A DNA stretch of 64,000 nt from Flaccisagitta enflata (taxonomy: Eukaryota). The position numbers were made by a program, and so were the translations under genes. Where the stretch lies: assembly GCA_965153355.1 (NCBI GenBank), contig OZ231126.1, forward strand, positions 10,354,001-10,418,000, read 5' to 3'. Below are positions 1 to 60,330 of this stretch, piece after piece. The notes under the pieces are model-generated. The model was not told the origin of the DNA. It made no database searches and worked only from the letters and a program-made list of their open reading frames with translations. Each line of letters opens with the position of its first letter. Position 1 is the first letter of the stretch.

Positions 1-235
1 TTAAAGAAAATTCGAGACAAATTTCTCTGAGATCCACAAGCGTGTTTTGAGGCTCGACTTGAATGGTAAAGCTTTTAGTGTTGCTGGTAATCGGCAGCGA
101 TGGATAAAACGGCACAGGGGAAATATGATCGATACTGAAATCACGTTTCGGTACGCTCCACAAATCAAAACGCTCCGAGATGCATGTTTCGCTAGAGTCG
201 ACGTAGACCGTCGCGGGATCGTGTATTCCGCTCAT
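1..235 (-). CDS. Maverick/Polinton major capsid protein (PY/hexon-like), N-terminal part; truncated by the window edge
   Basis: Not in the ORF track. Manual translation from ATG at 235 gives MSGIHDPATVYVDSSETCISERFDLWSVPKRDFSIDHISPVPFYPSLPITSNTKSFTIQVEPQNTLVDLREICLEFSL, open to base 1. This fits the Polinton MCP N-terminal pattern (C.xS.LDLF..P..Q.SI.....YP.....IEF.I......DL) and the expected position after the core protein gene. Confidence 0.8.
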   Translation of the reverse strand, partial: MSGIHDPATVYVDSSETCISERFDLWSVPKRDFSIDHISPVPFYPSLPITSNTKSFTIQVEPQNTLVDLREICLEFSL

Positions 236-285
236 TTTGATTGACTTCACGCGCGTACACGCATGCGCACGCGAGACTATCTCGC

Positions 286-1047
286 CTAGTCAAAAATCGA
301 TTTTATACGCGAAGATTTGGTCCCACGCGCACGTCCCTTCGTCGTAGACTTCTTGCGTATAACAGCCCCTCCTCCCTTTCCTCCACGCTTAACTTTCCTC
401 CCGCCACTTTTACTTTTTATCGGGCGTTTTCGGGCCCCTCGTCGAACCCCACGCTGCGCCCCCCCTTTTCCTCCGCGTCGCGTTACGCGTCGAGCACCGC
501 GTCGCGTTACGCGTCGAGCACCTCGGCGCACGACGCGTCGAACCCCACCCCGTGTTCGTTTACGAGCCCCCCGCTTGCCACCCACTCGCTTATGTCGCCG
601 TCGCCCGCGTCGAGATTTTGTTAACGCGGATAAACGTCTTTTGTTTTCCGGGTTGAGGTTTTCGACGATGTCGTTGGGTAGCGTGTTAGATTTTCCTCCT
701 CTTCTTCTTCCTCCTCCTTTTCCTCCTCGTCGCCCGCGACCTCCAACGACGTTTTTTAACGCGTCAGCGCCTCGTTTTAGTGTTTTTTTACCGACGTCCT
801 TCACGGATTCTCCTTGCGCCAACGAGCTAAGAGCATCAGCGCCAACGTTAAGGGCTTTTTGGCCGAATGACCGTATCCCTTTATTTATATACTTGCTCGT
901 CAATCCGTCCGCGGCTTTTTCTAGGATCGGGCGGAAAAAACGTCCAATCGAGGCTAGGAATCCATCACCTCTTCCCCCCGCCCTACCTCCTCTGCGTCTT
1001 CTCTCAGTATCGAACAAAGAAAACGTGCGAATAGATGGTCGCTCCAT
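286..1047 (-). CDS. Maverick basic core/DNA-condensing protein (PM / adenovirus pVII-like) with N-terminal amphipathic helix
   Basis: Contains GGRGDGFLASIGRFFRPIL...GQKALNVGADALSSLAQGESVK, typical of the gene between mCP and MCP, plus a very Arg/Gly-rich tail with VTRRGARR repeats. The ATG at 1047 overlaps the upstream stop (TGATG). Confidence 0.7.
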   Translation of the reverse strand: MERPSIRTFSLFDTERRRRGGRAGGRGDGFLASIGRFFRPILEKAADGLTSKYINKGIRSFGQKALNVGADALSSLAQGESVKDVGKKTLKRGADALKNVVGGRGRRGGKGGGRRRGGKSNTLPNDIVENLNPENKRRLSALTKSRRGRRRHKRVGGKRGARKRTRGGVRRVVRRGARRVTRRGARRVTRRGGKGGAQRGVRRGARKRPIKSKSGGRKVKRGGKGGGAVIRKKSTTKGRARGTKSSRIKSIFD

Positions 1048-1946
1048 CACGAGGGCGCTCGAATGTGAAGCGTGATGCGAGTGTAAGCGCTAAACGAAGT
1101 AATTGGTCTATCGTACAAGTCACGTATCAGTATTCGGATGTATTGAATTTCCTGAGACTTCAACGTGATGTATTGCGGCGATCCTCCGTAATTGCGCGTT
1201 ACTCTCAGTGTTCCGGGAGTGTAGGGAAAAGACACGAAACGTAACAATCCAGCTTGACCGGAGGCGATTTTTTGAGGCACACCCAAATTTGAGAGAACCA
1301 TGAACGTGTCGTTGGGCGTTAACTCTGGTGGGTACTTGAAGTAGTCCCGCGTCGTCATAGTCGAGGGCCAAATCACTTGGCAATCCTTGTGGAAGAATCT
1401 TGTCTGCCTTTTATACTCGTACTTGAGCTTCTTGGTCTTATCTTTGGAGATCCCGATGATGAGATACTGCCGACGGGTAGAGTGAGTTGTTTGCACACCA
1501 AGGAGGTCCAATAATCCAGCATGGATTTTCATGGTGATTCCACAGTCGGGTTCAAACGAGACCCAAATTCGAACCAACACTGGATCGTACGTAAATAACT
1601 TCTTTATGCGTCGCGGCATTTCCTTTTTAATCCCATCGTTTAAAAACTTAACCAAGGTATTTCCAGAAACTAATTCTTTTCTTCCAAGTACCACTTTAAC
1701 GATTTTTCCATATGTACCATCTTCATTCTCATAATACCAGTCTAAAATTTCCAAATACGCAGTATCATCGTCATTCATATGTACGGCCTTGTAGGAAATT
1801 TCTGTGAGACAGACGGACGAACCTTGGGGTGCGTATAAAGGTTCATCGAGTACATTGGTGAAGTCACTTGGGGAATTGGGGAATCCATTTAGCGAGTTAG
1901 ACAGCAGGTTGATGTAGCAACCCTGAGGTGTCAACTGAACCGGCAT
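1047..1946 (-). CDS. Maverick/Polinton minor capsid protein (PX/penton-like)
   Basis: N-terminus YINLLSNS..FPNSPSDFTNVLDEPL...VCLTEISY and C-terminus LLRFV...PQYITL...IRILIRD..DRPI.....RITLHIR match Polinton mCP termini. Confidence 0.85.
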   Translation of the reverse strand: MPVQLTPQGCYINLLSNSLNGFPNSPSDFTNVLDEPLYAPQGSSVCLTEISYKAVHMNDDDTAYLEILDWYYENEDGTYGKIVKVVLGRKELVSGNTLVKFLNDGIKKEMPRRIKKLFTYDPVLVRIWVSFEPDCGITMKIHAGLLDLLGVQTTHSTRRQYLIIGISKDKTKKLKYEYKRQTRFFHKDCQVIWPSTMTTRDYFKYPPELTPNDTFMVLSNLGVPQKIASGQAGLLRFVSFPYTPGTLRVTRNYGGSPQYITLKSQEIQYIRILIRDLYDRPITSFSAYTRITLHIRAPS

Positions 1947-3195
1947 TTTTCAAGTTGACCAGCGTCTGACTGTCAATGAATTGTTTGAACCGCGGATTAT
2001 TCTTGTCTTGAAGCAAATATTCTGTTCTATCTTCCCCGATGGCTTTTCCCGATCTAGTTCTCTGCGCTTCGACAGTTCTCGATTCGGTTACGTAATATCT
2101 AGGTTTCTCCGGCGGAGCGTTCGCACTGTCGCTCACCGTGACTCGCGATATTCCAAGATCCTCGGGGGTCGAGATTTGAGGGCGATACACCAAACTCAAC
2201 TCGGGAGCGTTATAGGACCTTTGCAACGTTTTCGCGTCCGCAGGCTCCAGCGGTTTAATTTTAAAAACGGGCGGGATGGATCTTATAACTTTAGTGACGA
2301 CATAAATTTCGTCACTCCACTGCGGGATGCTGAAAGACTTTTGAAACTGTTTTTGCTCGTTTAAAATCCTCACTTGGTCGCTTATCTTGAATTTGGGTGG
2401 GCGATCATTACGTTGGTAAAACTCTACCAATTTCTGAGCATTTTCGCGTCGGACCCGCTCGCGGACTTGCTTGTTGTACACAATGGAGTAGGGCGTCTCC
2501 CCTTGAAACCCGAGGGATCGATGCGAGGATTTATTATAATTGTTAACAACCTGGTCAATGTACTTAACCCACGCGAACGAAGACTCCCATTCGAGAACAC
2601 GGAAGAGTCTACGCTGAATGGAGGCCAATACCCTTTCCGCAAGACTTGCTTTTAGTCGATTTCGATTATGGATTAGCTTTATTCCATAATTATCTTTAAG
2701 GAATTCAGCACAGCTAACATTCTCCGTCCCTCTATCACAATTTATATACTTCACTTTATGCTCACTCACAGGTGGTGATTCAAGAATTTCACTCAGGGCT
2801 GTTTTCATCGAGCTCGTGTCTTTCTTTTTCAAATTTTTCGTTATCAAGTACTTACTATAATTTCCAATAAACACTAATAGATACGCATTGCCGTTATTAA
2901 ACTTCTTGTTTTTAAGCGATTGAAAATCCCCCAAGTCCATGCTACAAGATTCGAATAGATTCGTTGGATCCAACATGTATTTGCGCCGAACAAAATTTTT
3001 AGGAGGCCGTTTCTTGTACAAAGTTGATATCTTATCCTTGAAGAGCCACTCACCCACATCTTTTTCTCTTAAGTGTTTAAACCGCTTTTTTAAAGCTTTA
3101 TACACTCGATTCTTACTGGCAAAACTCAACGGACTCTCCAAATTATAGTATAAATCGCGAAAAACCTTCTCCTCTTCCTCGTTGTTACGCGGCAT
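1897..3195 (-). CDS. Retroviral-like (rve, DDE) integrase of Maverick/Polinton
   Basis: Motifs LYYNLESPLSF, catalytic MDLGDF / CDRGTE / KASLAER, V.NYNKS.HRSLG..TPY and F.KS..PQWSDEIY.V, with a degenerate chromo-like C-terminus. Intact 432 aa. Confidence 0.92.
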   Translation of the reverse strand: MPRNNEEEEKVFRDLYYNLESPLSFASKNRVYKALKKRFKHLREKDVGEWLFKDKISTLYKKRPPKNFVRRKYMLDPTNLFESCSMDLGDFQSLKNKKFNNGNAYLLVFIGNYSKYLITKNLKKKDTSSMKTALSEILESPPVSEHKVKYINCDRGTENVSCAEFLKDNYGIKLIHNRNRLKASLAERVLASIQRRLFRVLEWESSFAWVKYIDQVVNNYNKSSHRSLGFQGETPYSIVYNKQVRERVRRENAQKLVEFYQRNDRPPKFKISDQVRILNEQKQFQKSFSIPQWSDEIYVVTKVIRSIPPVFKIKPLEPADAKTLQRSYNAPELSLVYRPQISTPEDLGISRVTVSDSANAPPEKPRYYVTESRTVEAQRTRSGKAIGEDRTEYLLQDKNNPRFKQFIDSQTLVNLKNAGSVDTSGLLHQPAV

Positions 3196-3198
3196 GAC

Positions 3199-4146
3199 TT
3201 AAAAGAGAGACTCCCATCTTATCTTAACACGCGGGATGCCAAACACACGACCGGATCCACGTTGCGTTAACGTCTCATCCGCCTCGCTATTATTAATCGG
3301 CGTGCTCGTCCTCCTACTTTCCGCCAGGATAGCCGATTCGAACGCGGACGAGTCGTCTCTCAGCTCTTCGAGTTTCCTCACCGCCGCTTCGTTGCCGACA
3401 ATACTCGACATGTAAGGAATAACACTCATCCGCTCAAGTAACGGGTCTATATTGAACTTGAGCGTTTTATTTTTCCGCGCGAGATTATCCAGGATCGGCA
3501 AAGTCTCGCCTTGAATCTGCCCGTCGACAATGATGCTTTCAGGTCCGACGGAGACACCGGGGAGAGCAAGGATCTCTGAGTATATGCGATTTGCTTTATT
3601 TTGAAAATTAGGTTTAATTTTTTGATAAATAAGTCGAGTAACATTAGCCGCCGAAGGCGCGCTTTCTTGTTGTGATCCTTGACTGGATGCCTCGGCCGCC
3701 TCTGTCGACGCGCGGGACGTGGATGCTTGATCTGGGGACGTCCCCTCCGCTCCCAAAGCTTCCTCTTCTAGCGCTTGCTCGTATCGTCGCTGTTGGTCTC
3801 TCGCCTCCTGTCGTTGTCGATCTAAATATTGTCTTTGCGAAGCCACTGGCGTAAAGCTTGAATTTCCCACCGCTAACGCCGGATTTGTAACTGTCGTGTT
3901 AGTGGGACCTGATGACGCCGGAGGTGCGGCTATTTTACTCGAGAGCATTGGTTGAATTTTATCCGAGATGCTCGCCCAGGCAGCTTCGTTTTGATTCTTG
4001 TTTTGTAAACGGTCCTCGATAAACTTTTGCTGGACCGTGCTTAATTCCACCGCGCTGGGAATAGATTTGTCACGTAATGTTTTTAAGCGCTGATATTCAT
4101 CGTCCGATAGGATCCAATGGCGTTTGGACAGGCTTAAACCTGACAT
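3199..4146 (-). CDS. Conserved Maverick hypothetical protein located between PW and integrase
   Basis: Intact 315-aa ORF in the cassette. N-terminal ILSDDEYQRL, low-complexity middle and C-terminal QRGSG...KIRWESLF resemble the protein at this position in other Mavericks. Confidence 0.65.
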   Translation of the reverse strand: MSGLSLSKRHWILSDDEYQRLKTLRDKSIPSAVELSTVQQKFIEDRLQNKNQNEAAWASISDKIQPMLSSKIAAPPASSGPTNTTVTNPALAVGNSSFTPVASQRQYLDRQRQEARDQQRRYEQALEEEALGAEGTSPDQASTSRASTEAAEASSQGSQQESAPSAANVTRLIYQKIKPNFQNKANRIYSEILALPGVSVGPESIIVDGQIQGETLPILDNLARKNKTLKFNIDPLLERMSVIPYMSSIVGNEAAVRKLEELRDDSSAFESAILAESRRTSTPINNSEADETLTQRGSGRVFGIPRVKIRWESLF

Positions 4147-4552
4147 CTTTGGACATTGATTCTTCCCTCATATTAGATTCTTCATCATTCATAGATTGTT
4201 GATTGTCACTTTGGTGGTGTTCGTGCGATGTAGGAGCAATTACGCGTAATAATATAGGTAGCAGCACTTCAAACAGCTTAGCAAACAAATCTTTTCTGCA
4301 TAAGTCTGCTCTCCGTTTTACGATTGATTTCTTCGCCTTGCACAAGCTTTTGATCTGATTTTTGTACACTCTGAGCTTTTCAGTCGCCGCTGACGAAATA
4401 CTTAAATTCCCGACCAGCACATTATAAACCACATCTGTGATTGCCTTTATGATTGGGTTTTTACACTTTTTAAGAAACTTTATTCTTTCTTTCTTATCCA
4501 GCGAAGTTATAAATTCCAAAATTGGAATTACTTTTTTAATTTTTTCACTCAT
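4097..4552 (-). CDS. Maverick PW-like small basic protein
   Basis: KKERIKFLKK..NPIIKAITDVVYNVLVGNLSIS...LRVYKNQIKSL..KKSIVKRR..L followed by an amphipathic LFAKLFEVLLPILL. The start overlaps the ATPase stop (ATGA). Confidence 0.8.
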   Translation of the reverse strand: MSEKIKKVIPILEFITSLDKKERIKFLKKCKNPIIKAITDVVYNVLVGNLSISSAATEKLRVYKNQIKSLCKAKKSIVKRRADLCRKDLFAKLFEVLLPILLRVIAPTSHEHHQSDNQQSMNDEESNMREESMSKDVRFKPVQTPLDPIGR

Positions 4553-5479
4553 TTTTTAAAGATGAACACTTGCATCGGGGATTCTTCGGGTGTGATACAC
4601 GTCCTTAGGCGGTACTTGTCTTTTGTGTGTACCCCCAGATCAACAAGAAGGTAGCCAAAGATAGAATTTTTAGTTAAATTTTCAAAAATTTCAATCACTC
4701 TTTTAAAATCACGGGGAAAGAATTGTAGACTGAACGAGCGAACCATACTGCGGGCCACCGGCGAGTATGTTAGGATGAAGGCAGAACTTTGGAGTACACA
4801 TTCTCTCATGTAGCGGATTGTGCGCGTGTACAGATTATGGACGATGAGTATAACCGTGAACCTGTAGGAATAAAGAGGAAACATTTTCACCCTCAATTTA
4901 TAGTTTTTGGTGATCACGTTGATCATGGATACTTACGATTGATGATGCATTAGGGAGCAGAAGAGGTACCGGAGGAATTCCTGGTCGCATCCTACATAAG
5001 AGAAAATGGGATTTATTGGAAGACCAAAAGGACAATATGGGTGGGGCTGCCATCCCTACACCCTACTTACCTACATAAGCATCGTCAATAACGATTGCAC
5101 AATTTCTTTTCTTTTTTAAGTTCTCCTGAGATATTTCTTCCGAATCCCATCCCTCATAGAACCGGATGTGAGGGTGCTCTTCAAAGATTTTTTGATAAGG
5201 TCCGTGAATAAAGATACATTCAAGACCATTTTCAGGGATATTATAAAAACAGTCCTTAAGATGTTTGAGCATTGATAATACTCTAGTTGTTTTTCCTGTA
5301 TTCGAGCTCCTGTAATAAAAAAGAGACAATAATTAACTATAATTACCATCAGTAATATGACAATAACCTGATCAATCAGTGTCATTATCTCACCCAACGA
5401 CAATCATGTTGCAGGGGTGCCTTATTTTTAAGGTTTCTTCAATTGGAACTCCAAATTCTTTATCTGTAGACGGTTCCAT
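4549..5479 (-). CDS. Maverick A32/FtsK-like genome-packaging ATPase; 4 exons (5394-5479, 5071-5309, 4937-4991, 4549-4861), 230 aa
   Basis: Splicing three GT-AG introns gives a 693-nt open frame: RHPCNMIVVG|SSNTGKTT (Walker A), CAIVIDD (Walker B), LFCSLMHHQS|FTVILIVHNLY, FSLQFFP, FGYLLVDL, KYRLRT. Confidence 0.88.
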
Positions 5480-5619
5480 GATTCTTTTTCATAACGTCAA
5501 AAGACAGAATCTTCTATCTTTTCTATCCTTTTATTCTCCACCTCATGAAGTTTGACCCTTGCTCATTCAAGTGGAATCGTTAATGGGATTCAAGGATTAA
5601 CTTCCGCGTGTGTGTGTGT

Positions 5620-5674
<55 letters not shown>

Positions 5675-5859
5675 TGTTGCCGTTTCACTCTTAAGGTGTT
5701 AGGGGTTGAATGATCTGCATTACGCCCTTGTACTCCTTGACCTCTTTGCACTCCACCCCTAAGCTGGGGTTTAATGCAATTTCCATCGTTACCCCTTTCC
5801 CATCATTACACCCCTTAGCTGTCACATTAGAAATGGTGTCTCATCATTTTAGCGGGAAT

Positions 5860-11210: not shown

Positions 11211-11789
11211 TTTTTAAGCTCGCCGGACCAAATATAATTATTATATTTTGGGATCTAACTATTATAGCTCATGGTATAATTATTAGATAATCCAAAATAT
11301 AATTATTATAATTATCAATATAATTGTTGTAAGTTGTCTTAAAACAGTTATATTGGTTGAATAAAACTGTTATATTGACCATATGGCACCACTGCGATAT
11401 AATTTCGATATAATTTCGATATAATTTCGATATAATTTTGATAAAAAAATTATAATTTCGATATAATATCGATATAATATCGATATAATTGTTATGTGGT
11501 ATAATTTCGTCCGCGATTGATATAATTTTTTGCTATAATTATTAGAAAAAAACTTTTTTTTTTGAGTGTATGTCACACAGTACTATATCTGCGCGGGTTA
11601 CATCAGTGTCTTTTCCTGTCATTGTCTCACCATCTAATTGCTTGTCTACTTCTCTTTTTTGTTTTACAGTAGGTTTCATGCCAACGTTTTTGGCCTGTCT
11701 ATTTATCTGTCTGTGTCTGTTTGTGTCTCTACTTGTACCTGTCTCTCTGTCTCTGTCTCTGTCTTTGTCTCTCTCTCTCTCTCTGTCTC

Positions 11790-11881
<92 letters not shown>

Positions 11882-13108
11882 AGATAGCAAAGGGACAATT
11901 TAGTGCCCCGGCGTTGCTTCAGCAGCGGTTTTCTCTTCTCACTAAGGTACAATTTTACTACGATTGCTTCATTCAAATGGTTCAATCTCTTAAGCCCACA
12001 TGTTTTAGTCTTTTTCATAGGGATATCAGTAAATTAATCCCCAATCAATTTTGTTTTGTTCTTCCTAAAATAAATCATATGTTTGCATTTTGCCCATGGT
12101 TTGATATCTAGATGGATTAACCAGTATTTTTAAGCATTGGTTTGATCAGGATTCAAGCCAGGCACAGTTTCATCAGCAAAATCTATGTAGAAAAACCTGT
12201 ATCTGTATTCATTAGATGTCAAGAAATTGAAGGATTTCTTTTATTCATCATTTGATCTGATGTCCTACCCAGGCTATGACCATCTCCATTTGGCATAGTT
12301 ACTGTTTGCAGAGCTTTTACATGAATTCTAAGAGGACTTGTCAGTTGAACATTTGTGCAACTTTGTTTTCGCCTCTTAATTGATATCACTCTTTTTCCCC
12401 CATTTTCCCCCCAATACTTGATAATGGCAAAAGGTTTGCATCTGATGTGATATCCAGACTTTGAGGGACAATCTTTTGTCAATGGATAAACAAATCCATG
12501 ATGCTAAACTTAATGTACCAAGACAATACCTCACCCTGTATGTTAACAATCATGCTAAAAAATAACTGAATCAACTCAATTATTTTTCACTATTTTCAGA
12601 AAAGAAATGTCATCTTCAAATCGCTCTCATTTGACTGATTGAGACACAAAAATTGGATTGGTCTCAAATGATAGAACTTTCGAAGTAGTTTCTGAATCTC
12701 ATAATGTTTTCCTACCTATTCCTGCCAGCAATATAGTTATCACTGATTATAAGTTAACTAAGAATTTTTTCCTAGGAAGTATTATGCAATTCACAAGAAA
12801 CTTCACATTTCATGCCTCTTTTTTATCAGATTCAAACCAGAGTAACACAAAGAGAGCATCATTTTCTTTCCTTTGGTCTGGTCTTTGTCGCGGCCAGTTT
12901 CGCAGTCTAAGCGTAGTTTCACTTACCCCAAGGGCCGTAGTTTCTCTTACCCCTAGGAGTAATTTCACTGACCCCAGGGGAGTAGTTCTTCTTGTACGCT
13001 GTTCGCGAAAAAAAGGTCCTCTATTTCATCTTTGGGATTGCCGAGGGTAAAAAATGATGAATGTTTCCAAATCTGCAATTGTGTGCAGTCTGCATTTATT
13101 TTGCTTTC

Positions 13109-13989: not shown

Positions 13990-14644
13990 AATCTGTTTCT
14001 TTTTGGTCGGTTGGTCAATCGGTAATGAAGTCTTTTCACCGAGTTTTTCACTCCTGCCTTTCTTTTTGCCAATTATTTCCACATGATTTTCATGGAGACT
14101 TGATGTAAAGCAAAGATATGTCGAGGAGCCCAGGAGGTTTTAAACTGAGCTAAGCCTAAGGTACTGAAACCTTAAATAGCGTAAAAGTGATAGGGAGTGG
14201 ATTCAGCCTCCTCCTTCAACTGAATAATGGAAAGAGTTTGACAGATGATAGAGAAGAAAGGTAATATGCAACACAGATACGACAGCTGATAAAGAGGAAG
14301 GGTAATATGCAACGCGGATATGCGGAGATCCCCACCCTCAAGTTTCAATAAAACAACAGTTTAGCTTAGAAGTTCGATGCATCCGAACAAAACTGAATGG
14401 AACAAAATTCTAGCCCGCTTGTCAATTGCAACCAAAATGGGGACTCATATATGCATATTCCACTGGATTTAAATCAACCTAAGAGTTACGTGTGGGCAGA
14501 AGCACCACTGCAAAAACTCCGTGACGTGCGGACGGGCATGGGCTGGACGCATAGACAGACAAACGGATGGAGGGATCTACCAACTGTACAACATTGTCTA
14601 TCGTCTATGTATCTGAGTGTGCGTGTTGTGTTTTCAGTATTGTC

Positions 14645-15610
<966 letters not shown>

Positions 15611-17567: not shown

Positions 17568-17740
17568 TAAATTATAGAGTCTGACTTCATCAACTATGAA
17601 GCTATTTCATAACGGTTTCTTTCTTTTAATGACGCCCAAAGAGAGAAAAAAAGGAACCTTTTTTCTTGGAAAAACTGGGAAAAAAAGATGGAAAGAAATA
17701 AGGAAGGAGGATGAAAGAGGGAAAACAAGAAAGCAGGAAC

Positions 17741-17742
17741 TA

Positions 17743-17826
<84 letters not shown>

Positions 17827-17847
17827 GAAAGAGAGAAAGAAAGAAAG

Positions 17848-17937
<90 letters not shown>

Positions 17938-18214
17938 GAAAGAAAGAAAGAAAGGAAAGAAAGGATGAAAAAAAGGAAGAAGAGAGAGGGAAAGCAAAAG
18001 AGAAAGAAGGGAACAAACAAACAAACAAACAAACAAACAAACAAACAAACAAACAATGAAAGCGACAAAGAAAGAAAAAAAAAGAAGGAAAAGAAAAGAA
18101 AGGAAGGATGAAAGAAAGGAAAGGAAAAAGAAAAGAAAGGTAGAAGAAAAGATCAAAAACAGAAAAATAAAACGGATGAAATAGGAAGGAAAGCAAGAAA
18201 GAAAGAAAGAATGA

Positions 18215-18278
<64 letters not shown>

Positions 18279-18914
18279 AAAGAAAGAGGTAGAGATGGGC
18301 TTTTATCTTTGAAGTTGCCGACAAGGGAGGACCAACATAATGGAACCATAGTAGAATAATGAAAACAGAGTAAAGAAGGAAGAAATGAAAGAGATGAGGG
18401 ATGAGGAGGGGATGAGGAGGAGGGGATGAGGAGGAGGAGAAGATGAGGAGGAGCTGGAGGAGGAGAAGAGAGGAAAGACAAAAAAACGAGCGAACTTTAA
18501 ACCCATAAAAAAAAATTGTTTTGTAAAAACCTTTTCTCTTTGCACCATTCTTTTTTTTTCTTTACAGGGCTTACTATCCACCCTCGGCATCTCTTGATGA
18601 GTTCCTTTCTTGGTTTTAACATGGATTTACCAGTTTATATAAACTTTATTGATATTCATATTAGTTTTAATGATCAAAAAGACAGGCCGCTACCAAAAGA
18701 GGGAAAAGATAAGAAGGAAAGGAATGTTGAGAAACACGTCGTCAAATTATTTGATAACGTATTATACTTGAAATTTCTATTTCCTCATTTTTTTCTTCTT
18801 TCTCAGACCTTTTTTTTTTCTTCCATGGAAGATATATAAGATTTTCATGAACAAATCCGTAAGAGAGGGACGATAATGTGTAATTCGAATCCTGAACAAA
18901 CATTTGAAAATTGC

Positions 18915-18998
<84 letters not shown>

Positions 18999-19027
18999 CC
19001 AGAGTCAGAGAGACAGACGGACATACA

Positions 19028-19074
<47 letters not shown>

Positions 19075-19127
19075 GAAGAAAGAAAGAAAGCAAGAAGGAA
19101 AGTAGGAAAGAAAGAAAGAAAGAAGAA

Positions 19128-19199
<72 letters not shown>

Positions 19200-19290
19200 A
19201 AGAAAGAAGGTATAAAAGAAAGACCGACATACAGACAGAGAGATGGATAGAAAGTAAGAAAGTAAAAAGAAAGAAAGAAAGAAAGACAGA
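17741..19290. repeat. Purine-rich low-complexity (GAAA)n/(GA)n tracts
   Basis: Directly visible; source of many spurious ORFs. Confidence 0.9.
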
Positions 19291-19412
19291 AAGAAAGAGT
19301 CATAACTTCTTTTTTGATCGCAGTCATGCGTTAGCCACATTTTCGCGGCTTCTTTGTTATTCAGTTTTAAAAAATTATGAATTTATAATTTTTTCCTGGA
19401 CCTTATTTTAAA

Positions 19413-21180: not shown

Positions 21181-23590
21181 CTTTTTGGGCAGCGGCCCCG
21201 AAGGGGACGAAGTCCTGTAGAACACAGGGGGACTTTCGTTCGTCCGTTAGTTCGTTCGTTCGTCCGTTCGTCCCCCCTCTCAGGCCCAAAATCAGCCCTC
21301 TCAAGCCTGAAACCCCCCTCTCAGGCCCAAAATCAGCCCTCTCAAGCCTGAAATCAGCCCTCTCAGTCCTGAAATCAGCCCTCTCAAGCCTGAAATCAGC
21401 CCTCTCAAGCCTCAAATCAGCCTTCTCCAGCCTCAAATCAGCCTTCTCCAGCCTCAAATCAGCCTTCTCAAGCCTCTTAGTGGCCTTCTAGAGCCTTTCA
21501 ATCTGCTCTCTCAGACCTTATTTTAGCCCTCTCAAGCCCCCTTACCCCTCTCAGATCTAAGAATCTCCTACTTCTACAGGACTTCGTCTCCTTCGGGGCC
21601 CCTCCATGCTCTTTCAGACTCTTAATTTGCCTTCTCAAGCCCTCTCAACCCTTGAATTGGCTCTCAAAGCTCTCTCAGACCTAATTGTAGCCCTCTCAAG
21701 CCTGAAACCCCCTCTCAGACCCAAAATCAGCCCTCTCAAGCCTAAACCCCCTCTCAGGCCCAAAATCAGCCCTCTCAAGCCTAAGACCTCTCAAAAAAGA
21801 GCCCTCTCAAGCCTGAAATCAGCCCCTCAAGCCTGAAATCAGCCCTCTCAATCCTGAAATCAGCCCTCTCAAGCCTGAAATCAGCCTTCTCAAGCCTCAA
21901 ATCAGCCTTCTCCAGCCTCAAATCAGCCTTCTCCAGCCTCAAATCAGCCTTCTCAAGCCTCTTAGTGGCCTTCTAGAGCCTTTCAATCAGCTCTCTCACA
22001 CCTTATTTTAGCCCTCTCAAGCCCCCTTACCCCTCTCAGATCTAAGAATCTCCTACTTCTACAGGACTTCGTCTCCTTCGGGGCCCCTCCATGCTCTTTC
22101 AGACTCTTAATTTGCCTTCTCAAGCCCTCTCAACCCTTGAATTGGCTCTCAAAGCTCTCTCAGACCTAATTGTAGCCCTCTCATGCCCCCTTACCCCTCT
22201 CATATCTAAGAAACCCTTACTTCTTCAGGACTTCATCTCCTTTGGGGCCCCTCCAAGCCTTTTCAGACACCTAATTTGCCTTCTCAAGCCCTCTCAAGCC
22301 TGAAATTGGCTCTACAAGTTAAAATCAGCCCTCTCAAGCCTGAAATCAGCCTTCTTAAGCCTGAAATCAGCCCTCTCAAGCCTGAAATCAGCCCTCTCAA
22401 GCCTGAAATCAGCCCTCTCAAGCCTGAAATCAGCCCTCTCAAGCCTGAAATCAGCCCTCTCAGGCCTCAAATCAGCCTTCTCCAGCCTCAAATCAGCCTT
22501 CTCAAGCCTCTTAGTTGCCGCCTTTAAATCAGCTCTCTCAGACCTTATTTTAGCCCTCTCAAGCCCCCTTACCCCTCTCGAATCTCCTACATCTACAGGA
22601 CTTCGTCTCCTTCGGGGCCCCTCCATGCTCTTTCAGACTCTTAATTTGCCTTCTCAAGCCCTCTCAACCTTTGAATTGGCTCTCAAAGCTCTCTCAGACC
22701 TAATTGTAGCCCTCTCATGCCCCCTTACCCTACTCATATCTAAGAAACCCTTACTTCTTCAGGACTTTGTCTCCTTTGGGGCCCCTCCAAGCCTTTTGGG
22801 CAGCGGCCCCGAAGGGGACGAAGTCCTGTAGAACACAGGGGGACTTTCGTTCGTCCGTTCGTCCGTCCGTTCGTCCGTTCGTTCGTTAGTCCCCCCCCTT
22901 CATCAGACCCCTCAGGCCTCAAATCTGGCCTCTCAGGCCTCAAATCCAGCCTCTCAGGTCTCAAATCCAGCCTCCCAGGCCTCAAATCTGGCCTCTCAGG
23001 CCTCAAATCTGGCCTCTCAGGCCTCAAATCTGGCCTCTCAGGGCTCAAATCTGGCCTCTCAGGCCTCTCAGGCCTCGAATCTGGCCTCTCAGGCCTCTCA
23101 GGCCTCGAATCTGGCCTCTCAGGCCTCAAATCTGGCCTCTCAGGCCTCAAATTTGGCTTCTCAGGCCTCAAATCCAAATTCTTAGGCCTCAAACCTGGAC
23201 TCTCATGCCTCAAATTAGGCCTCTCAGGCCTCAAATCAGCCATCTAAACCTCAATTTATTGCTCCCTGGCTTCAAATCAGTCCTCTGGCCTTTCAAGCCT
23301 TAATCCAGCTCTCTCAAGCCTCAAGTCAGCCCTCTCAAGCTTCCAATCGGCATTCTCAGGCCTTATATCAGCCTTCTTAGACCTCAGTTTAGGCTCTTGA
23401 ATGCCTTCAGTCAGCCCTTTATAGCATCTCATCCACTTCTTCAGGTAGGACGAACGAAAGTCCCCCTGTGTTCTACAGGACTTCGTCCCCTTCGGGGCCG
23501 CTGCCCTGCTTCCCCTCACTTCAATTCACAATCACTCAAAGCAGGGCAACGGGTATCGCTGACCACATATTGCCCTTGGGCGACCTGTTA
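21181..23590 (+). mobile_element. Cluster of HINE-like elements with a 21-bp internal minisatellite; complete copy at about 22793-23590
   Basis: Long subterminal inverted repeat gggcagcggccccgaaggggacgaagtcctgtagaacacaggggg, offset from a 3' end ...gggtatcgctgaccacatattgcccttgggcgacctg. The internal unit is aggcctcaaatctggcctctc. Confidence 0.7.
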
Positions 23591-31478: not shown

Positions 31479-40061
<8,583 letters not shown>

Positions 40062-40311
40062 CTTTTATCTGGAGAAGGAGAAAAAGACGAGGAGCTGGTG
40101 AATTAAGGACCCATGCCTCATTAATATTTCAAGTTATATCTCCTTTTAAGTCGCGGACTTGCGACTCTGTAGGAGGCGTTGTTTGTCCGTCCGTCCGGCA
40201 GTCTGTTGGTTGGTCTGTGACGCTCGAGTTGAAAAGTGCGAGATCGAGATCACGCATTTGAGATGCTGTAATTGTTCTTTTGAGTTTGTCTGTGTGGTTT
40301 TGTTTGTGTGG

Positions 40312-40346
<35 letters not shown>

Positions 40347-40347
40347 C

Positions 40348-40450
<103 letters not shown>

Positions 40451-40732
40451 TGTGTGTGTGTGTGTGTATGTGATGTGTGCAACAATTCATCCTATATAAA
40501 ACTCATACAATTATCCAAAAAAGAAACATTAAGCTTTAAAGAAAATCTGAAAAAATACGGACATTTACATAGCGTAAGCTTCCATTACATACACATACAT
40601 ACCTAATATATGGTTTTTTGAAACGCTATCAAAATTCCTCAGGTACATACTTTTTACTAAATGTGTCATATTTCTTCTATTTAAATCAAAATTTTAGGTG
40701 TATTTTAGAAAAATATATAAAAAACATTTTAG

Positions 40733-43652: not shown

Positions 43653-45031
43653 ACAGGTCGCCCAAGGGCAATATGTGGTCAGCCATATCCGTTGCCCGGC
43701 TTTGCAAGATTGTGAATTGGAGTAAGAGGAAGCCGAGCAGCGGCTTCAAAGGGGACTAAGTCCTGTAGAACACAGAGGGATTTCTGTTTCTTTGTTTGTC
43801 CATCTGTCTGTCCGTCCATCCCCCCCACACCCTCTCAGGTCTGAAATCGGTCCTCTCAGGCCTGAAATCTACCCTCTCAGGCCTGAAATCTGCTCTCTCA
43901 GGCCTGAAATCTGTTCTCTTAGACCTTAAACCTGCCCTCACAGAATCATGGCTTGAGAGGCTCGATTTCAGGCCAGAGAGGGCAGATTTCAGGCCTGAGA
44001 AGGCAGATTTCAGGCCTGAGTTGGCAGAATTCAGGCCTGAGAGGGTAGATTTGAGGCCTAAGAGAAGGCCTGGAGAGGATGGACGAATGGACGAATGGAC
44101 AAACGGATGCATGAACAAACAAAAGTTCCCTTGTGTTCTACAGGACTTTGTCCCCTTTGGGGCTGCTGCCCAAAAAGCGTCATAACAAAATAGTCGCAAA
44201 GCCAAAGGCATCAGATGAATGAATGAATGAATGAATGAATTTTATTTACGATAAAAGCAACAAGCAAAAACTTGTTCGATCGACGGATAGCTCGATTAAG
44301 TCATTACAACTTTTTTCCAATGGGGTCCGGTGAGATAAAACAGGTCGCCCAAGGGCAATATGTGGTCAGCGATACCCGTTGCCCTGCTTTGAGTGATTGT
44401 GAATTGGAGGGAGGGGAAGCAGGGCAGCGGCCCCAAAGGGGTCCCGAAGGGGAGGAAGTCCTGTAGAACACAGGGGGACTTTCGTTCATCCTGCTTGAAG
44501 AAGGGGAGGAGATGCTATAGAGGACTGACTGAAGGCCTTCTAGAGCCTAATCTGAGGTCTAAGAGGCTGATATAAGGCCTGACAATGCAAATTGGAAGCT
44601 TGAGTTGAGAGGGCTGACTTGAAGCTTGGGAGAGCTGTTCAGGCTTGAAATCAGAGGAGTGACTTGAAGCCTGAGAGCAATAAATTGATTTGAAGCCTGA
44701 GAGGCCTAATTTGAGGCCTTAGAGGCTAGGTTTGAGGCCTCAGAATTTGGATTAGAGGTCTGAGAGGCCTAATTTGAGGCTTGAGAGGCCAGGTTTGAGG
44801 CCTGAGAGGTTGGATCTGAGGCCAGAGAGGCAAGATTAGAGGCCTGAGAGGCTGGATTTGAGGCCCTGAGAGGCAGGATTTGAGGCCTGAGGGGCCAGAT
44901 TTGAGGCCTGAGAGGCCTGATGAGGTAGGGGGGACGGACGAACGAACGGACAAACGAACAAACGGACGGACAAACGAAAGTCCCCCTGTGTTCTACAGGA
45001 CTTCGTCCCCTTTGGGGCCGCGGCCCAAAAA
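43653..45031 (-). mobile_element. Two HINE-like elements (about 43653-44177 and 44340-45031), same family as 22793-23590
   Basis: caggtcgcccaagggcaatatgtggtcagc end, the same subterminal inverted repeats and the 21-bp minisatellite. Confidence 0.7.
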
Positions 45032-49290: not shown

Positions 49291-50212
49291 ACTCCAAAGT
49301 ACTCCACATGCTGTCTCGAGCAATTTACCTCCATCCATTTATTACTCCTTTCCTCCCCCCCCAACTAATCGGCAATGCCACCCCATCTCTTGGGTGCTTC
49401 ACATAGCAAAAGTTGGGAGTATCCCTTCACCCTACTTAGGAGCAAAAATCATGAAGATGACCATTTTCCTTTTTTCAAAATTCCTTCATCTTCCGTTTTT
49501 GTTTTGGCCTTAAAGTTTCCACTGATTTCCCAGAATTCAGCAAAATCCTGTGTAGTTTTGTTACAAAAAGGACAATTATTTGTTTTAAAAAATCATGATA
49601 TATGTAAAAATAAACTAAAATATCAGAATATAAGTTATGAAAGAGCAAATGAAAAGGCAGAATTGCAATTCTATGAAGAGTAGAAAATTATGAAAGCTGA
49701 TTCAAACAATGTCAGCATATTGTTTTATCCCACTGCATTATGCAAATTAGGTCCTCAAAAGCAACTTTCTAAAAAACGGAAAATGAACGATTTTTGATAA
49801 AACAAAAATGGTAAGGGTCCTAAAATTGGTCACTCCACATTAGGTAAAGAGGGCGAAAAGAAATAACCAACTTTTGCTATGCGAAGCACGCAACCCCATC
49901 TCAACTTCTTACCCCATCTTTACCCCCCCTACAAATCGGGTATGCCACCCCTTTTGAACTTCTTACCCCCTAAAAATCGGCAAAGCCCCCCATTCAAACT
50001 TCTCACCCCCCCCCCCCATCGGCATTGCCACCCCATTTCCGGTCGTGATCACGTGACTTCTGCCTGTCCTCAGTCATCATCTGCGTCACTTTCACCGATC
50101 CACGACTCGACTATCCGGTGTTAAATATTTACCGTGACTGACATATGACATCGGCGACCACGCAGATTGGTTATGGAACCTGCCCGGTCGTAATCTGCCT
50201 TCCCCCTCTCTC

Positions 50213-55039: not shown

Positions 55040-58000
55040 GTGGTTAAGTTATAGAGTGGTTCTAAGGCGTTGCTGTTACCAAAAGATGGACTTCACTGTT
55101 GAACTTATGGACCAAAGATATACGAGAGACCCATGCAACTGAAAAAAACACATTCAGGACATTTTCGTAGGTCACTGTAAAGCTGCAATATGCAAATGAG
55201 ATTGACAGTGACCCTTCTAAATCTTTCATACTGTTTGAGCTTCATAATATGTTGAAAAATGGAGTGAAAGCCCAATGGATAGTCCTCTCTCACGTTTTAT
55301 TAAATGCCAGCCAAATTTCTTGTGAATCAATGGGAGTCAAGGGCATCAACTCGTTAATAAAAGTTTTTGATTGGAAGAACATCATTAACATGACATATTC
55401 TTTTAAATACCATAATTATTGAAGGCTAGCAGAATCATGAGATAACAGTAAATGAACTTGACTGTTAGACTTATGGACCAATGATCTACAAACGACTAAT
55501 TCACCACACCTGAAAAAAAAGACATTCAGGAAATTTGTTTTGGTCACTATAGAGCGGCAAAATGCAAATGAGATTGACAGTGTCCCTTCTCAGTCTTTCA
55601 TACTGTTAAAGCTGTGTGATAGGTTGAAAAAAAGGGTGGAAGACAAAAGCATGGTCCTCCATCTCTTATTGCGCTCTGATAACTGGCAAGATTGCTAGTG
55701 AGTCAAAAGGTGTAGAAGGCGCAGATTGGTTTCTACAGTTGTCTAACAGGAGGAAGTACCTCCAAGGAACAAAGTTTATCAATCAGTGAGTGCTACAATT
55801 TCTCAATATTGGCAACAGTGATTGTCATTTTTTTGGCCTTTATAAGACTGTTAGGAGCAAAATGAATTCAAATAAGACTGGTCCAATCATGAAATGATTC
55901 TTTAGTCATTGCAGATAAACTGACATGGACTTGACTGTTAGACTAATCGACCAATGATGTACTAGAGACCTGAAAACCTGAACCTGAAAAAAAGACTTTC
56001 GGGAAGTTTTTCTAAGGTCACAGTAAAGCTGCAATATGCAAATGAGATTGGCAATGTCCCTTCTCAGTCATTCGTACTGCTTTAGCTGCATAAGAGGTAG
56101 AAAAAAATGGTAGAAGACACGTGGATGGTTTTCTGTCCATTGGTACTCCTTTGAAACCAGCCAAGTTGATCAAGAGTCAATGGTTACTAGTTTGTAACGG
56201 CGTCAGAACGGAAATTTAATAAAAACAGAACATCTGAATATGATATCAAAATTTGTCGAGGAGAGCAATGAAAAGCTTTTCTTAGATTGTAAGGAGCAAT
56301 ATGGATTCCAATATGATAGTTGGCAAATTATGGTATGGCTCCAAGGCATTGCAGTTATAAACAGATGGACATGACTATTAGACTCATGGACAATGATCTA
56401 TAAAAGAACAATCATTGCATCTCAAAAAAATCTCATTCAGGCAGTTTTTAAGGTCACAATAGAGCTGCAATATGCAAATTAAATTGAGTGTCTGTTTTAG
56501 CTGCATTATAGGTATGAATAGTCGCAAAAGGGTTTGATGGTCAGCAGTACTTGTGCCCTGCCCAAGTAGGTTGTGATTGAAGTTGAGGGCAGGAGCAGGG
56601 CAGCGGCCCCAAAGGGCTTGATGACCTGTGCTTTCACTCATGTGGGGAATTTTCTCCTTCTCTTTCAAGACTTTGGGATTTGGGTCTTTGGACTGAGATT
56701 TGGGTGGCAAGGCTGGATTTCGGCCTTCAAGGCTGAATTTGGGCCTTCAAGGCTGGAATTTGGTCCTCAAGGCTGGGATTTGGGCCCTGAGGATAGGACC
56801 TGGGCCTCAATATTGGGATTCTGACATTGAGAAACAAAAAATCTTGGCTTCTGTGTAAAGACACGGAGGATCAACCCCCTTAGAGCAATTGTCCAAAAAA
56901 GGGTCGATAGGTGCATTGGGAGCCGACCAACCTGTAAGAAAAGACCATGGTTGAACATAAATCTCAATAGAGGGTTGAATATTTAATGACTTTTATGATT
57001 TTCAAAGAATCAAATAGTTTTTTAATAGTTTGTTAGACTGTAAGGAGCAAAATGAATTCCGATATGACATTGATCAAATCCTGGAATGGCTCTAGGGCAT
57101 TGCAAATATCAATAAATGGACTTGATTGCTAGACTGATGGATTAATGATCTATTAAGGCCGACCTATGCACCTGAAATAAATGACATTCAGGAAGTTTTA
57201 CTAAGGTCACTAAAGAGCTGCAATATGCAAATAAGATTGAGTTTCCCTTCTTAGTCTTTTGTACTGTTTTGGCCACATAATCATTGAAACAGGTCGCCCA
57301 AGGGCAATATGTGGTCAGCAATACCCGTTGCCCTGCTTTGAATGATTGTGAAATGGATTGAGGGGAAGCAGGGCAGCGGCCCCGAAGGGGACGAAGTCCT
57401 GTAGAACACAGGGGGACTTTCGTTCGTCCTACCTGAAGAAGTTGATGAGATGCTATAGAGGGCTGACTGAAGGCATTCAGAGCCTAAACTGAGGTTTAGA
57501 AGGCTGATTTAAGGCTTGAGAATGCCAATTGGAAGCTTGAGAGAGCTGACTTGAAGCTTGAGAGAGCTAGATTACGGCTTGAAAGGCCAGAGGACTGATT
57601 TGAAGCCTGAGAGCAATAAATTGAGGATTTAGATGGCTGATTTGAGGCCTGAGAGGCCTAATTTGAGATATGAGAGGCCAGGTCTGAGGCCTGAGAATTT
57701 GGATTTGAGGCCTGAGAGGCCAGATTTGAGGCCTGAGAGGAGGCCAGATTTGAGCCTGAGAGGCCAAATTTAGAGCCTGAAGGCCAGTTTTGAGCCTGAA
57801 GGCCCAATTTGAGACGAGGCCAGATTTTAGGCCTGAGAGGGAGGCTGGATTTGAAAAGGAGTCTGAGGGTCTAGACGAGGGACTAGCAGACGGACGAGCG
57901 GACAGAAACGGACAAAGCGGACAAACGGACGGGATGAAGACGAAAGTCCCCTGTCCCTTCTCAGACTTTTGTACTGTTTTGGCCGTATAATCATTGAAAA

Positions 58001-60330
58001 CAGGGGTAGGAGACAAATAGATGGTTCTCTCCCCCTCCCTCTAATTTTCAGATACAATTTGCCAGATTGCTTTTACTATATGTCATAATTATTGAAGGTC
58101 AGCAAGGACGGAAGTTTTTTCTTTGGTGTCTCTAAGGCTGTTAACAGAAAACAAATTTCAAAATGAAAATGATAAAAAACTTTGGAATGACTCTTAGGCA
58201 TTGCTAAAATCAAGAGATGGACTAGTGTATTAGTTAGACTAATATACCAATGATCGACCAGAGACCAATCAATGCCCCTGCAACCAATGATCTACCCGAG
58301 ACCAATCAATACCCCTGCAAAAATTGACATTCAGGAAGTATTTATTAGGTCACTAAAGAGCTGCAACATGCAAATGAGATTGACAGTGTCCCTACTGAAG
58401 GTTTTAGCTGCATAAAAAGTTGAAAATAAGGGTGGAAGACAACTGGATGGATCACCTCCTGTAAGTCTCTTACAACCCAAACAGATTGCTCTTGACTTGT
58501 GAGTCAATCAGTGTGACAGGTTTTGACAGATCTAAGGGGAAGGTTGCCACTTATTTTTCATCTTCTTGCACATGCCAAGAGTTTGTGAAGTATGCAACCA
58601 TGATTGAATTTTTAGGTCTTTTTAAGACTGTAAAGAGCAAAATGAATTCAAATACAATAGTGATCCAATTGTGGTATTGCTCTAATGCATTGCAGATTCC
58701 AAGAAATGGACTGGACTGTTAGACTAATGGACTAATGATCTACAATATACCGATTTATGCACCTGAAAAAAATGAAATTCAGGAAGTTTGTGTTTAGTTT
58801 ACTATAGAGCTGCAATATGCAAATAAGATTGACAGTGTCCATCCTCAGTGTTTCATACTGTTTAAGCTGCTAAGTAGGTTGAAAACAAGGCCGGATACAC
58901 AGCTACCTTAGTCGGGTGGGCAGGGGCGGCAAAAAAAGCTAAGCGTGATGGACGGACCGACCAACGGACCGACAGACGGACAAAGCGGGTTGCAGAGTCG
59001 CGTGCAAGCGACTAAAAAGGGTGGTAAACAAGTAGACAGTTCTCTACCCCTTGATTCTCACTAAAAACTGGCCCAATGGCTTGTGAATCAACAGATGTAA
59101 AGTGCATAGATTGGCTTGTAAGGATAACTGGAGAGAAGAACTAAGCTAAACTAACACTTTTTCAAAAATGCCAAACTTTCTATGTTTTCCAAAGGTGAAT
59201 GAGTTTTTTAGGTGTTTGTTAGATTGTAAGGGGCAAAATGAATACCAATATGATAATAGTCAAGGCTTTAGGGCTTTGCAGATATCTAGTAATGGACTTG
59301 GCTGTTAGACCTATGCACCTGAGAATAAAAGGACATTAGGCAGTTTATTAAAGGTCACTGTAGAGCTGCAATATGCAAGTCAGAATGACAAAGTCCCTTC
59401 TCAGTCTTTCATACTGTTTTGGCTGCATATTAGGTTGAAACAAGTCATTGGATTTCACATGGTCAGCAGTACCCGATGCCTTGCTCGGAGTGATCAAGTC
59501 AAGAAGTAGAGCAATTATGCATTCACTTGCAGATATCAAGAAATGGACTTGACGGTTGGACTTATAGAAATATTAGAGACCAATCAGGCCCCTGAAAAAA
59601 TTGACATTCAGTATGTTTTTTTAGGTCACTGTAGAGCTGCAATATGCAAATGAGATTGAGTGACCCTTCTCAGTCTTTTGTACTATGTTAGCTGCATAAT
59701 GCGTTTAGTAAAGGGCTGGAAGGCAAATGAACAGTGCTCTATCTCCTTATTCTATCCCTTTATTCAACTAGCCAGATTGCTTGTGAGTCAATGGGTGTAA
59801 AGGGCGAAGACTGGTATATTTGGTTGTCTAAAGGGAAGAACTAAGTAAACTCTTCCAGAAATGACAGTATTATTCAAGGTTTCTGAAAAGAGTATTGTTT
59901 GCTTTCTTTTTGGGCTTTGTTAGACTGTAAGGAGCACAATAAATTCCAAAATGATAAGTGGACCAATTATGGAATGACTCTTAAGGGTTGCAGATATCAA
60001 GAGATGGACTTGATTGTTAGACTAATGAACCAATGATCTACAAGAGACCCATCCATGCCTTAAAAACAGAACATTCAGGAAGTTTTTTTCAAGGTCACTA
60101 TAGAGCTGCAATTTTCAAATGAGATTGTCTCTTCTAAGTCTTTTCAGGCGTCCCTTAGCACCTTTATAACTGGCTGTGTCAGTTGGTTGGTCAGTTAGTC
60201 TGTCTGTTGGTCGGTAATGCATTTGTTCGATGATCCACATGGCACACCCTATTGGCCCACATGGCCTTGTTTACTGCTTTAGCTCTATCAAAGGTCGGTA
60301 AAACGGGTGGAAGACAAATAGATGGTTCTC
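55040..60330. repeat. Degenerate tandem array, about 10 units of roughly 370-470 bp, interrupted by HINE-like insertions
   Basis: Core ggtcactgtagagctgcaatatgcaaatgagattg at about 55170, 55542, 56015, 56452, 57205, 58348, 58797, 59353, 59624 and 60093. Confidence 0.85.

Follow-up and report, generated by a model that had tools for sequence, protein, structure and literature searches.

The first part of a 64,000-nucleotide (nt) stretch of the genome of Flaccisagitta enflata (contig OZ231126.1 of assembly GCA_965153355.1, positions 10,354,001 to 10,418,000; hereafter the window, numbered from its first letter) contains a Maverick/Polinton-type element whose packaging ATPase gene is split by three short inserts. 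We consider it fairly probable that the inserts are spliceosomal-type introns of different ages, with splicing predicted from the DNA, and that the second of them is an introner, i.e., an intron created by the insertion of a mobile element. The third insert is common to all copies of the element that were seen, and the first two are missing from the sister copies.

The ATPase gene is located on the minus strand and its parts are listed in Table 1. Piecewise translation of the four exons, which sum to 693 nt, yields 230 codons followed by a TGA stop. The positions and lengths of the inserts (84, 79 and 75 nt), the GTGAG and GTAAGT donors, the pyrimidine-rich YAG acceptors at their exact ends and the 230-residue frame obtained by their removal had all been given in an initial annotation made from the sequence alone, and each was reproduced exactly. 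The same holds for its statement that intron 1 splits the first Gly codon of Walker A and that unspliced RNA meets a stop immediately: insert 1 interrupts the Gly codon that precedes SSNTGKT, and the unspliced frame reads GGG and then TGA, so that the product would end in NMIVVG. Counting the split codon, both nucleotide-binding motifs, Walker A (GxxxxGK[ST]) and Walker B (hhhhD[DE]), are intact, and exon 2 ends in AIVIDDAYV.

Each of the three inserts opens exactly with GTRAG and closes exactly with YAG, the latter preceded by a tract of 82–88% pyrimidines. In the window as a whole, GTRAG is found at 0.14% of positions and an acceptor of this kind at 0.31%; the chance that both signals coincide with the exact ends of one given insert is ca. 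4.5e-6. As expected of spliceosomal introns, each insert runs from GT to AG with a pyrimidine tract, and its removal leaves exons that are colinear with uninterrupted relatives of the protein. The DNA folds of the three inserts are no more stable than those of shuffled sequences (z from -0.8 to -1.6), and no structure resembling that of fungal introner-like elements was found. Group I and group II introns and other known RNAs were ruled out by Rfam, which returned 0 matches at E ≤ 1 on positions 4400–5700.

Table 1. Parts of the ATPase gene and downstream open reading frames (ORFs) of the element, in window coordinates. The last column gives the match to a profile of uninterrupted ATPases (positions out of 218, and score).
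Feature	Position	Strand	Description	Match to ATPase profile
ATPase exon 1	5394–5479	minus	86 nt; ATG at 5479; ends in GG, which opens the split Gly codon of Walker A	4–18; 3.6 bits (weak)
Insert/intron 1	5310–5393	minus	84 nt; GTGAG...TTACAG; phase 2; missing from sister copies	control, in-frame translation: -2.0 bits
ATPase exon 2	5071–5309	minus	239 nt; starts with G; Walker A (SSNTGKT) to Walker B (AIVIDD)	21–97; 53.1 bits
Insert/intron 2	4992–5070	minus	79 nt; GTAAGT...TGTAG; phase 1; high-copy repeat of ~70–72 nt (~4999–5070) plus one copy of the duplicated target	
ATPase exon 3	4937–4991	minus	55 nt; 17 whole codons; ends in HHQ plus a split Ser codon	102–117; 6.5 bits
Insert/intron 3	4862–4936	minus	75 nt; GTAAGT...CTACAG; phase 2; in all sister copies seen	control, in-frame translation: 0.3 bits
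ATPase exon 4	4549–4861	minus	C-terminal half; stop TGA 4551–4549, overlapping the ATG of the next ORF	119–217; 112.4 bits
Downstream ORF	4097–4552	minus	151 aa; no family matched	
Downstream ORF	3199–4146	minus	315 aa; no family matched	
Integrase-like ORF, rve core	1897–3195	minus	432 aa; PF00665, E 3.8e-6, 27.5 bits, under the curated cut-off of 32.6	
Candidate minor capsid (penton) ORF	1047–1946	minus	299 aa; Atlas neighbours, a lead only	
Basic ORF	286–1050	minus	254 aa; extremely Arg/Gly/Lys-rich	
Further ORF, start only	2–250	minus	runs past the window start	

An exhaustive phmmer search with exon 4 retrieved 239 proteins at E ≤ 1e-3. Among the best 150 of these, 81 are 200–260 amino acids (aa) long and are matched by exon 4 in their C-terminal half; the ten relatives that were looked up all come from metagenome contigs (ENA, Logan). 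A 218-position ATPase profile was made from 60 uninterrupted full-length relatives of 205–245 aa, and the exons were scored against it as separate records. As can be seen from Table 1, the exons span the profile from one end to the other. The initial annotation had proposed comparing the spliced protein with A32/Polinton ATPases and would have taken a failure to align over the full length as refuting it. The score of exon 4 is partly circular, the members of the profile having been picked by their likeness to exon 4; that of exon 2 is independent of this choice. In the reverse comparison, in which full-length relatives were searched against the window by tblastn (25 queries printed), a high-scoring segment pair was obtained with exon 4 in 25 of 25 cases and with exon 2, at E ≤ 0.01, in 12 of 25.

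Pfam recognized Pox_A32 in 24 of 40 aligned relatives (E ≤ 1e-3, best 1.1e-9) and Adeno_IVa2 in 3 of the 40. The fold comparison was made on P0002, the closest full-length relative, rather than on the window's own protein. The predicted model of P0002 has a mean local confidence score (predicted local distance difference test, pLDDT) of 91.1. Its ten top matches in the PDB are all the B204 packaging NTPase of Sulfolobus turreted icosahedral viruses (STIV/STIV2; E 2.9e-6 to 2.2e-5, template modeling score 0.46–0.57), and its nearest neighbours in a viral structure library are adenovirus IVa2, Sputnik V3, virophage and A32-like ATPases and an adintovirus FtsK-like protein. Because most of the aligned relatives match Pox_A32 or Adeno_IVa2 and the P0002 model resembles viral packaging ATPases, we assign the predicted product to the A32/FtsK-HerA-type viral genome-packaging ATPases. 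The identity proposed in the initial annotation is thereby borne out by the exon-4 relatives, their Pox_A32 matches and the P0002 fold. Other searches added little: a word-based homologue search with exon 4 gave 27 candidates, 0 of which scored, an Atlas search with exon 4 gave no usable match, a PDB sequence search with exon 2 gave rows at chance level only, and a profile search of the PDB gave generic P-loop matches only (RecA, PilT and KaiC).

In order to compare copies of the element, contigs from three DNA runs (X1, X2 and X3) were aligned on positions 1–5600 of the window; they represent other copies at 90–99% likeness. Insert 1 is skipped in contigs of all three runs (joint 5308 to 5394, 85 positions skipped with 1 letter between, a net 84 nt). 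Insert 2 is skipped in contigs of X1 and X3 (joint 4996 to 5076, 79 nt skipped), and X2 contains a variant of this joint (4991 to 5076, with 5 other letters between). At the site of insert 3, no joint was reported in the contigs of X1, X2 and X3; record 7 of X1 and record 12 of X2 run through 4862–4936, and record 19 of X3 covers 4889–4936. In bin 5237–5423, a single contig without insert 1 accounts for the entire depth in X2 (57.9 × 102/187 = 31.6) and likewise in X3 (8.11 × 102/187 = 4.42). No aligned contig of X2 or X3 carries insert 1, and for X1 depth does not decide.

A further sister copy is represented by P0164, a 127-aa ORF from a 513-nt metagenome contig that is 95% identical and is the only near-length relative of exon 2 in a collection of 5.8 billion proteins. 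P0164 reads exons 1, 2 and 3 as one ORF and stops after HHQS, where the TAA of the GTAAGT of insert 3 would fall. It shares 27 of 28 residues with exon 1, is 95% identical to exon 2, and 21 of 22 residues of its C-terminal end are those of exon 3. When it was aligned with the window by tblastn, a 28-codon gap was located exactly at insert 1 and a change of frame at insert 2. The more distant uninterrupted relatives show no gap at any of the three insert positions.

Since the sister copies lack inserts 1 and 2 and possess insert 3, the first two appear to be younger than the split between the sister copies and the third older. Since the distant relatives are uninterrupted at these positions, all three inserts are most simply read as gains within this lineage. 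Judged by its distribution, insert 1 is specific to this copy or its subfamily, and insert 3 is, at the DNA level, an older intron common to the family. The claim of a splicing-dependent Maverick lineage, made in the initial annotation, therefore holds in part: insert 3 is present, as DNA, in every sister copy, but inserts 1 and 2 are precisely missing from them. A 1-nt length difference among sister copies was observed in insert 3 at 4878, and no indel was reported inside the ATPase exons among the best-supported rows, a distribution which hints weakly that the exons are constrained and insert 3 is not.

Insert 2 differs from its surroundings in both abundance and ends. A repeat search found a perfect direct repeat of 10 nt on either side of it (4991–5000 and 5070–5079, spacing 79). 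The sister copies hold one copy of this 10-mer and no insert 2; in the window, the second copy re-encodes the same three residues, as seen in the tblastn alignment with P0164. The inner ~72 nt have 50–250 times the k-mer depth of the surrounding element. At position 5021, the depth is 20165 in X1, 16517 in X2 and 162 in X3, as opposed to ~110, ~65 and ~5 for the flanking element; these depths serve as ratios only and not as estimates of absolute copy number. The depth excess in bins 4863–5049 and 5050–5236 matches ~72 nt (4999–5070) at repeat depth, and contigs diverge into unlike flanks at 4998–5001 and at 5061–5070. Read on the gene strand, insert 2 begins with GTAAGT directly after an exon AG and ends in a pyrimidine run, its 3′ AG being supplied by the duplicated target.

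On these grounds insert 2 is, as far as DNA can tell, a short, highly repeated mobile element with a target duplication of 7–10 bp, whose exact length is ambiguous, as the end letters of the element may overlap the repeat. It displays features by which introners are recognized: many copies (from depth), a target-site duplication and presence or absence at homologous sites. Because of the 10-nt direct repeat, the high depth, the unlike flanks, the GTAAGT start and the target-derived AG, it looks like an introner-type transposon that inserted after the element family had diversified.

Twelve metagenome-contig stretches were considered as further copies of the insert-2 repeat and rejected, since all 12 have unrelated flanks and represent chance matches (a first scan had given 0); viral contigs gave 0. 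An 18-nt stretch on the minus strand of the window, 49421–49438, resembles the first part of insert 2 at 17 of 18 letters (E 0.014) and could be either a relic of some related repeat or a chance match.

Could the sister copies have lost introns rather than this copy gained them? If all three introns were ancestral, introns 1 and 2 would have to have been removed precisely from the sister copies, intron 2 by a direct-repeat deletion or by recombination with spliced complementary DNA. Deletion between the 10-nt direct repeats would remove exactly 79 nt, and the sequence of intron 1 does not say whether it was gained or lost. However, the interior of insert 2 is a repeat at 50–250 times element depth that has unlike flanks in different contigs, which fits insertion with target duplication better than an old intron ending by coincidence in a copy of the exon upstream; every aligned X2 and X3 contig, at 90–99% likeness, is without insert 1; and the distant uninterrupted relatives show no gap at these positions. 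We regard such losses as quite improbable.

It is also conceivable that the repeat and the 84-nt piece were misassembled into this copy. High-copy short repeats and multi-copy elements are difficult to assemble, X1 has only 0.69 of the sampled words of 4400–5600, and among the contigs listed none is shown to bridge the insert junctions. A mis-join, however, would not yield a perfect 10-nt duplication, nor in-frame boundaries with splice signals at three sites, and 22 of 96 X1 pieces are at least 99% alike to the window. An assembly artefact is accordingly highly improbable.

Gain of introns thus being our preferred reading, the following course of events can be proposed. Intron 3 would already have been present in the ancestor of the element family, because it is common to every sister copy seen, and from then on the ATPase of the family could have been made only from spliced mRNA. 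Introns 1 and 2 would be later acquisitions of this copy or its subfamily, intron 1 being an 84-nt insert with good splice sites of its own. Intron 2 would go back to a mobile element, short, non-autonomous and very abundant, whose two ends bear a consensus 5′ splice site (GTAAGT) and a pyrimidine tract, respectively. Its insertion would generate a 7–10-bp target duplication ending in AG. If the GT of the element and the AG of the second target copy then served as splice sites, the element would be lost from the mRNA together with one target copy and the frame left unchanged. Excision with a target-derived AG of this kind is the introner mechanism.

We infer that this copy is expressed and that its pre-mRNA is spliced at all three sites, yielding the 230-residue ATPase. 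The family would then have been dependent on splicing since the gain of intron 3, and the repeat family presumably forms introns elsewhere in the genome, i.e., is an introner family. A bolder version, in which a marine-animal Maverick family makes its ATPase only via host splicing and is now being colonized by an active introner family, seems to us doubtful. The suggestion of the initial annotation that packaging is gated by host splicing is speculation.

A number of observations weigh against this scheme. Insert 1 has neither a target duplication nor raised depth, and no source of it is recognizable. The same absence of raised depth (X1 depth is 114.8 at 4878, in insert 3) and of a flanking repeat applies to insert 3, and neither insert shows similarity elsewhere in the window by blastn-short. 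For insert 2, neither blastn-short nor a degenerate motif search turned up a second copy of the repeat in the 64-kb window, scans of metagenome contigs and viral contigs revealed no further copy, and no terminal inverted repeats were detected (0 inverted pairs); that the duplicated target ends in AG could be luck (1 in 16). On the ATPase side, Pfam matched 0 families with single exons (three scanned, exon 3 left out), so that the family assignment runs through relatives. Neither genes for Pol B and capsid proteins nor Maverick terminal repeats were seen in the window, which includes only 5.5 kb of the element, as the element continues beyond position 1. No RNA run was listed among the runs containing this DNA, and the one RNA run of the same study (X7, ~6% sampled) gave 0 reads on positions 1–5600, which does not amount to a test. 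Finally, P0164 has another residue at the first Walker A glycine and therefore probably encodes an impaired ATPase, which suggests that some copies of the element are decaying and that the family need not be active.

Some of these points are what would be expected if inserts 1 and 2 were ordinary insertional damage in a silent, decaying copy and were never spliced, with insert 3, if any, as the only working intron. The absence of inserts 1 and 2 from the sister copies, the altered Walker A residue of P0164 and the absence of expression evidence are all in line with this, as are several 1-nt indels at 2873–3604 in the downstream ORFs of X2 and X3 copies; in the excerpts available, a survey of vertebrate Mavericks (PMC8097293) treats short insertions in degraded copies as pseudo-"introns". 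Random damage, however, would hardly begin exactly with GTRAG and end exactly with a pyrimidine tract and YAG, as both inserts do, with the low chance given above applying to each. The limits of the inserts match the gaps relative to the sister copies to the base, and in this copy the exons and the five downstream ORFs are all intact. The initial annotation had named copies lacking the inserts, which would expose them as random debris, as grounds for giving up its interpretation. Inserts 1 and 2 are indeed missing from such copies, but insert 2 is a high-copy repeat with a target duplication and splice signals. We therefore consider simple damage unlikely and retain the view that the inserts are introns acquired at different times.

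The gene neighbourhood is compact. Downstream of the ATPase gene, five ORFs are read through without interruption, as had been noted initially; they are tightly packed, and several overlap by ATGA or by ~50 nt. The ORF at 1047–1946 has as its nearest Atlas clusters unnamed proteins of Preplasmiviricota, Nematoda and Arthropoda and one Sputnik V18/19 minor-capsid cluster (0.97). Its single close relative, P0163, belongs to a sister copy at 93% identity, and its single-sequence fold (pLDDT 35) is unusable. The ORF at 286–1050 has repeated RRGARRVT-like units and an extraordinary content of Arg, Gly and Lys; it matched no family, and from its composition a DNA-condensing core protein is possible. 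No double jelly-roll capsid, penton or adenain-like protease was matched by Pfam in the part of the element inside the window. A scan of viral contigs for related elements with an integrase pattern gave 13 matches, 0 of which were confirmed.

The assignment to the Maverick/Polinton type is well supported by predicted gene content and compact layout but is incomplete, Pol B, major capsid, protease and terminal repeats not having been seen in the 5.5 kb of the element inside the window. The Maverick label of the initial annotation gains from the compact layout and from the neighbouring ORF with an rve integrase core, although the latter scores under the Pfam cut-off. A microsatellite at 5607–5668 lies directly upstream of the ATPase gene, near a possible end of the element (~5480–5700). 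In one X1 contig, position 4545 is joined back to 2819 with 11 other letters between, indicating a rearranged or internally deleted copy. The DNA was found both in sequencing runs labelled organism A and in marine metagenomes.

The host is an animal; the window also contains an adhesion-type gene with immunoglobulin (Ig) and fibronectin type III (FN3) domains and a reverse-transcriptase element. The former is an uninterrupted frame of 1297 codons on the minus strand (34121–38014) with a signal peptide, a C-type-lectin-like N-terminus, Ig and FN3 domains and a hydrophobic tail. This is an animal adhesion gene of contactin-like type that apparently lies in one exon, an unusual arrangement for its class. 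The latter (61510–63998, minus strand) comprises a reverse-transcriptase ORF (RVT_1, E 5e-15) and an upstream ORF that runs off the window, and is probably a retrotransposon without long terminal repeats. Three regions, 22300–23300, 43756–44241 and 57567–58040, translate into repeats that are alike (LKSALSGLKS... on one strand and RPERPDLRPE... on the opposite one) and represent a dispersed tandem-repeat family. Microsatellites of (GA)n, (CA)n and other short units are very frequent throughout the window, e.g., at 5607–5668, 11700–11900, 14600–15400, 17600–19300 and 40150–40500, among others.

The origin of new spliceosomal introns in animals is poorly documented. Here, an empty site (in the sister copies) and a filled site (in this copy) occur within one gene family, which makes the gain, its splicing competence and its timing directly testable. 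Annotation based on ORFs only would miss the ATPase of this element. Should intron 3 be spliced, this family would be an exception to what has been published on vertebrates and nematodes, namely that the core genes of Mavericks lack introns. If the repeat is a true introner, the link between polinton-like viruses and introners extends from dinoflagellates to animals. Were both a splicing-only ATPase and an active introner family to prove true, virus-like Mavericks could be vehicles that bring intron-generating transposons from one animal to another, a role already proposed for the polinton-like viruses of dinoflagellates.

Adenovirus IVa2 is an ATPase of the same fold class, and in the viral library the P0002 model matches IVa2 of psittacine adenovirus 3 best (E 3.1e-8). 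The coding sequence of human adenovirus IVa2 is joined from two exons and is expressed from spliced mRNA. Splicing of a packaging ATPase transcript thus has a precedent among nuclear DNA viruses. Unlike the ATPase described here, IVa2 is larger and has a DNA-binding role, and its intron belongs to a fixed programme of viral transcription rather than being a recent mobile insertion.

The statements on the literature that follow refer to the excerpts available of each paper. The core genes of intact Mavericks are stated to be intronless in both vertebrates (PMC8097293) and nematodes (bioRxiv 10.1101/2022.07.12.499685), in agreement with the remark in the initial annotation that they are usually single ORFs. 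The element in the window resembles these Mavericks in having a compact module of an integrase-like protein, an FtsK/A32-like ATPase and a candidate capsid protein in packed, partly overlapping ORFs. It is unlike them in that its ATPase gene has one family-wide intron and two younger ones. In PMC10748475, PMC8502044 and PMC12220804, the excerpts mention group I/II introns only. In the excerpted literature on introners and Mavericks, no description of an introner-type intron, or of any spliceosomal intron, in an animal Maverick core gene was found; the supplements of the introner papers may list relevant species.

Introners were reported in ca. 25% of integrated viral elements of four dinoflagellate genomes, including full-length eupolintoviral proviruses (Gozashti & Corbett-Detig 2025, PMC12166617); most of these insertions were judged to be later than integration, and ca. 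25% lie in coding regions. As in that case, an intron-generating transposon would be situated inside a Maverick/polinton-like provirus, and here the insert is missing from sister copies. The present case differs in its animal host and in the place of the insert, which interrupts a core gene of morphogenesis past Walker B and ahead of the motif that follows. That insert 2 is an introner is proposed here from one copy and sequencing depth, as opposed to the curated, RNA-supported family of dinoflagellates (PMC12166617).

In a broader survey, introners were found in 175 of 3,325 genomes, in hosts "from copepods to" protists, and target duplications in 49 of 130 families (Gozashti et al. 2022, PMC9860276). 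A Chrysochromulina introner described there has a 4-bp target duplication, compared with 7–10 bp for insert 2. In its architecture, insert 2 is like that introner (Fig. 2C of PMC9860276): the 5′ splice site lies at the start of the element, the 3′ AG lies in the duplicated target, terminal inverted repeats are absent, and excision would leave the length of the mRNA unchanged.

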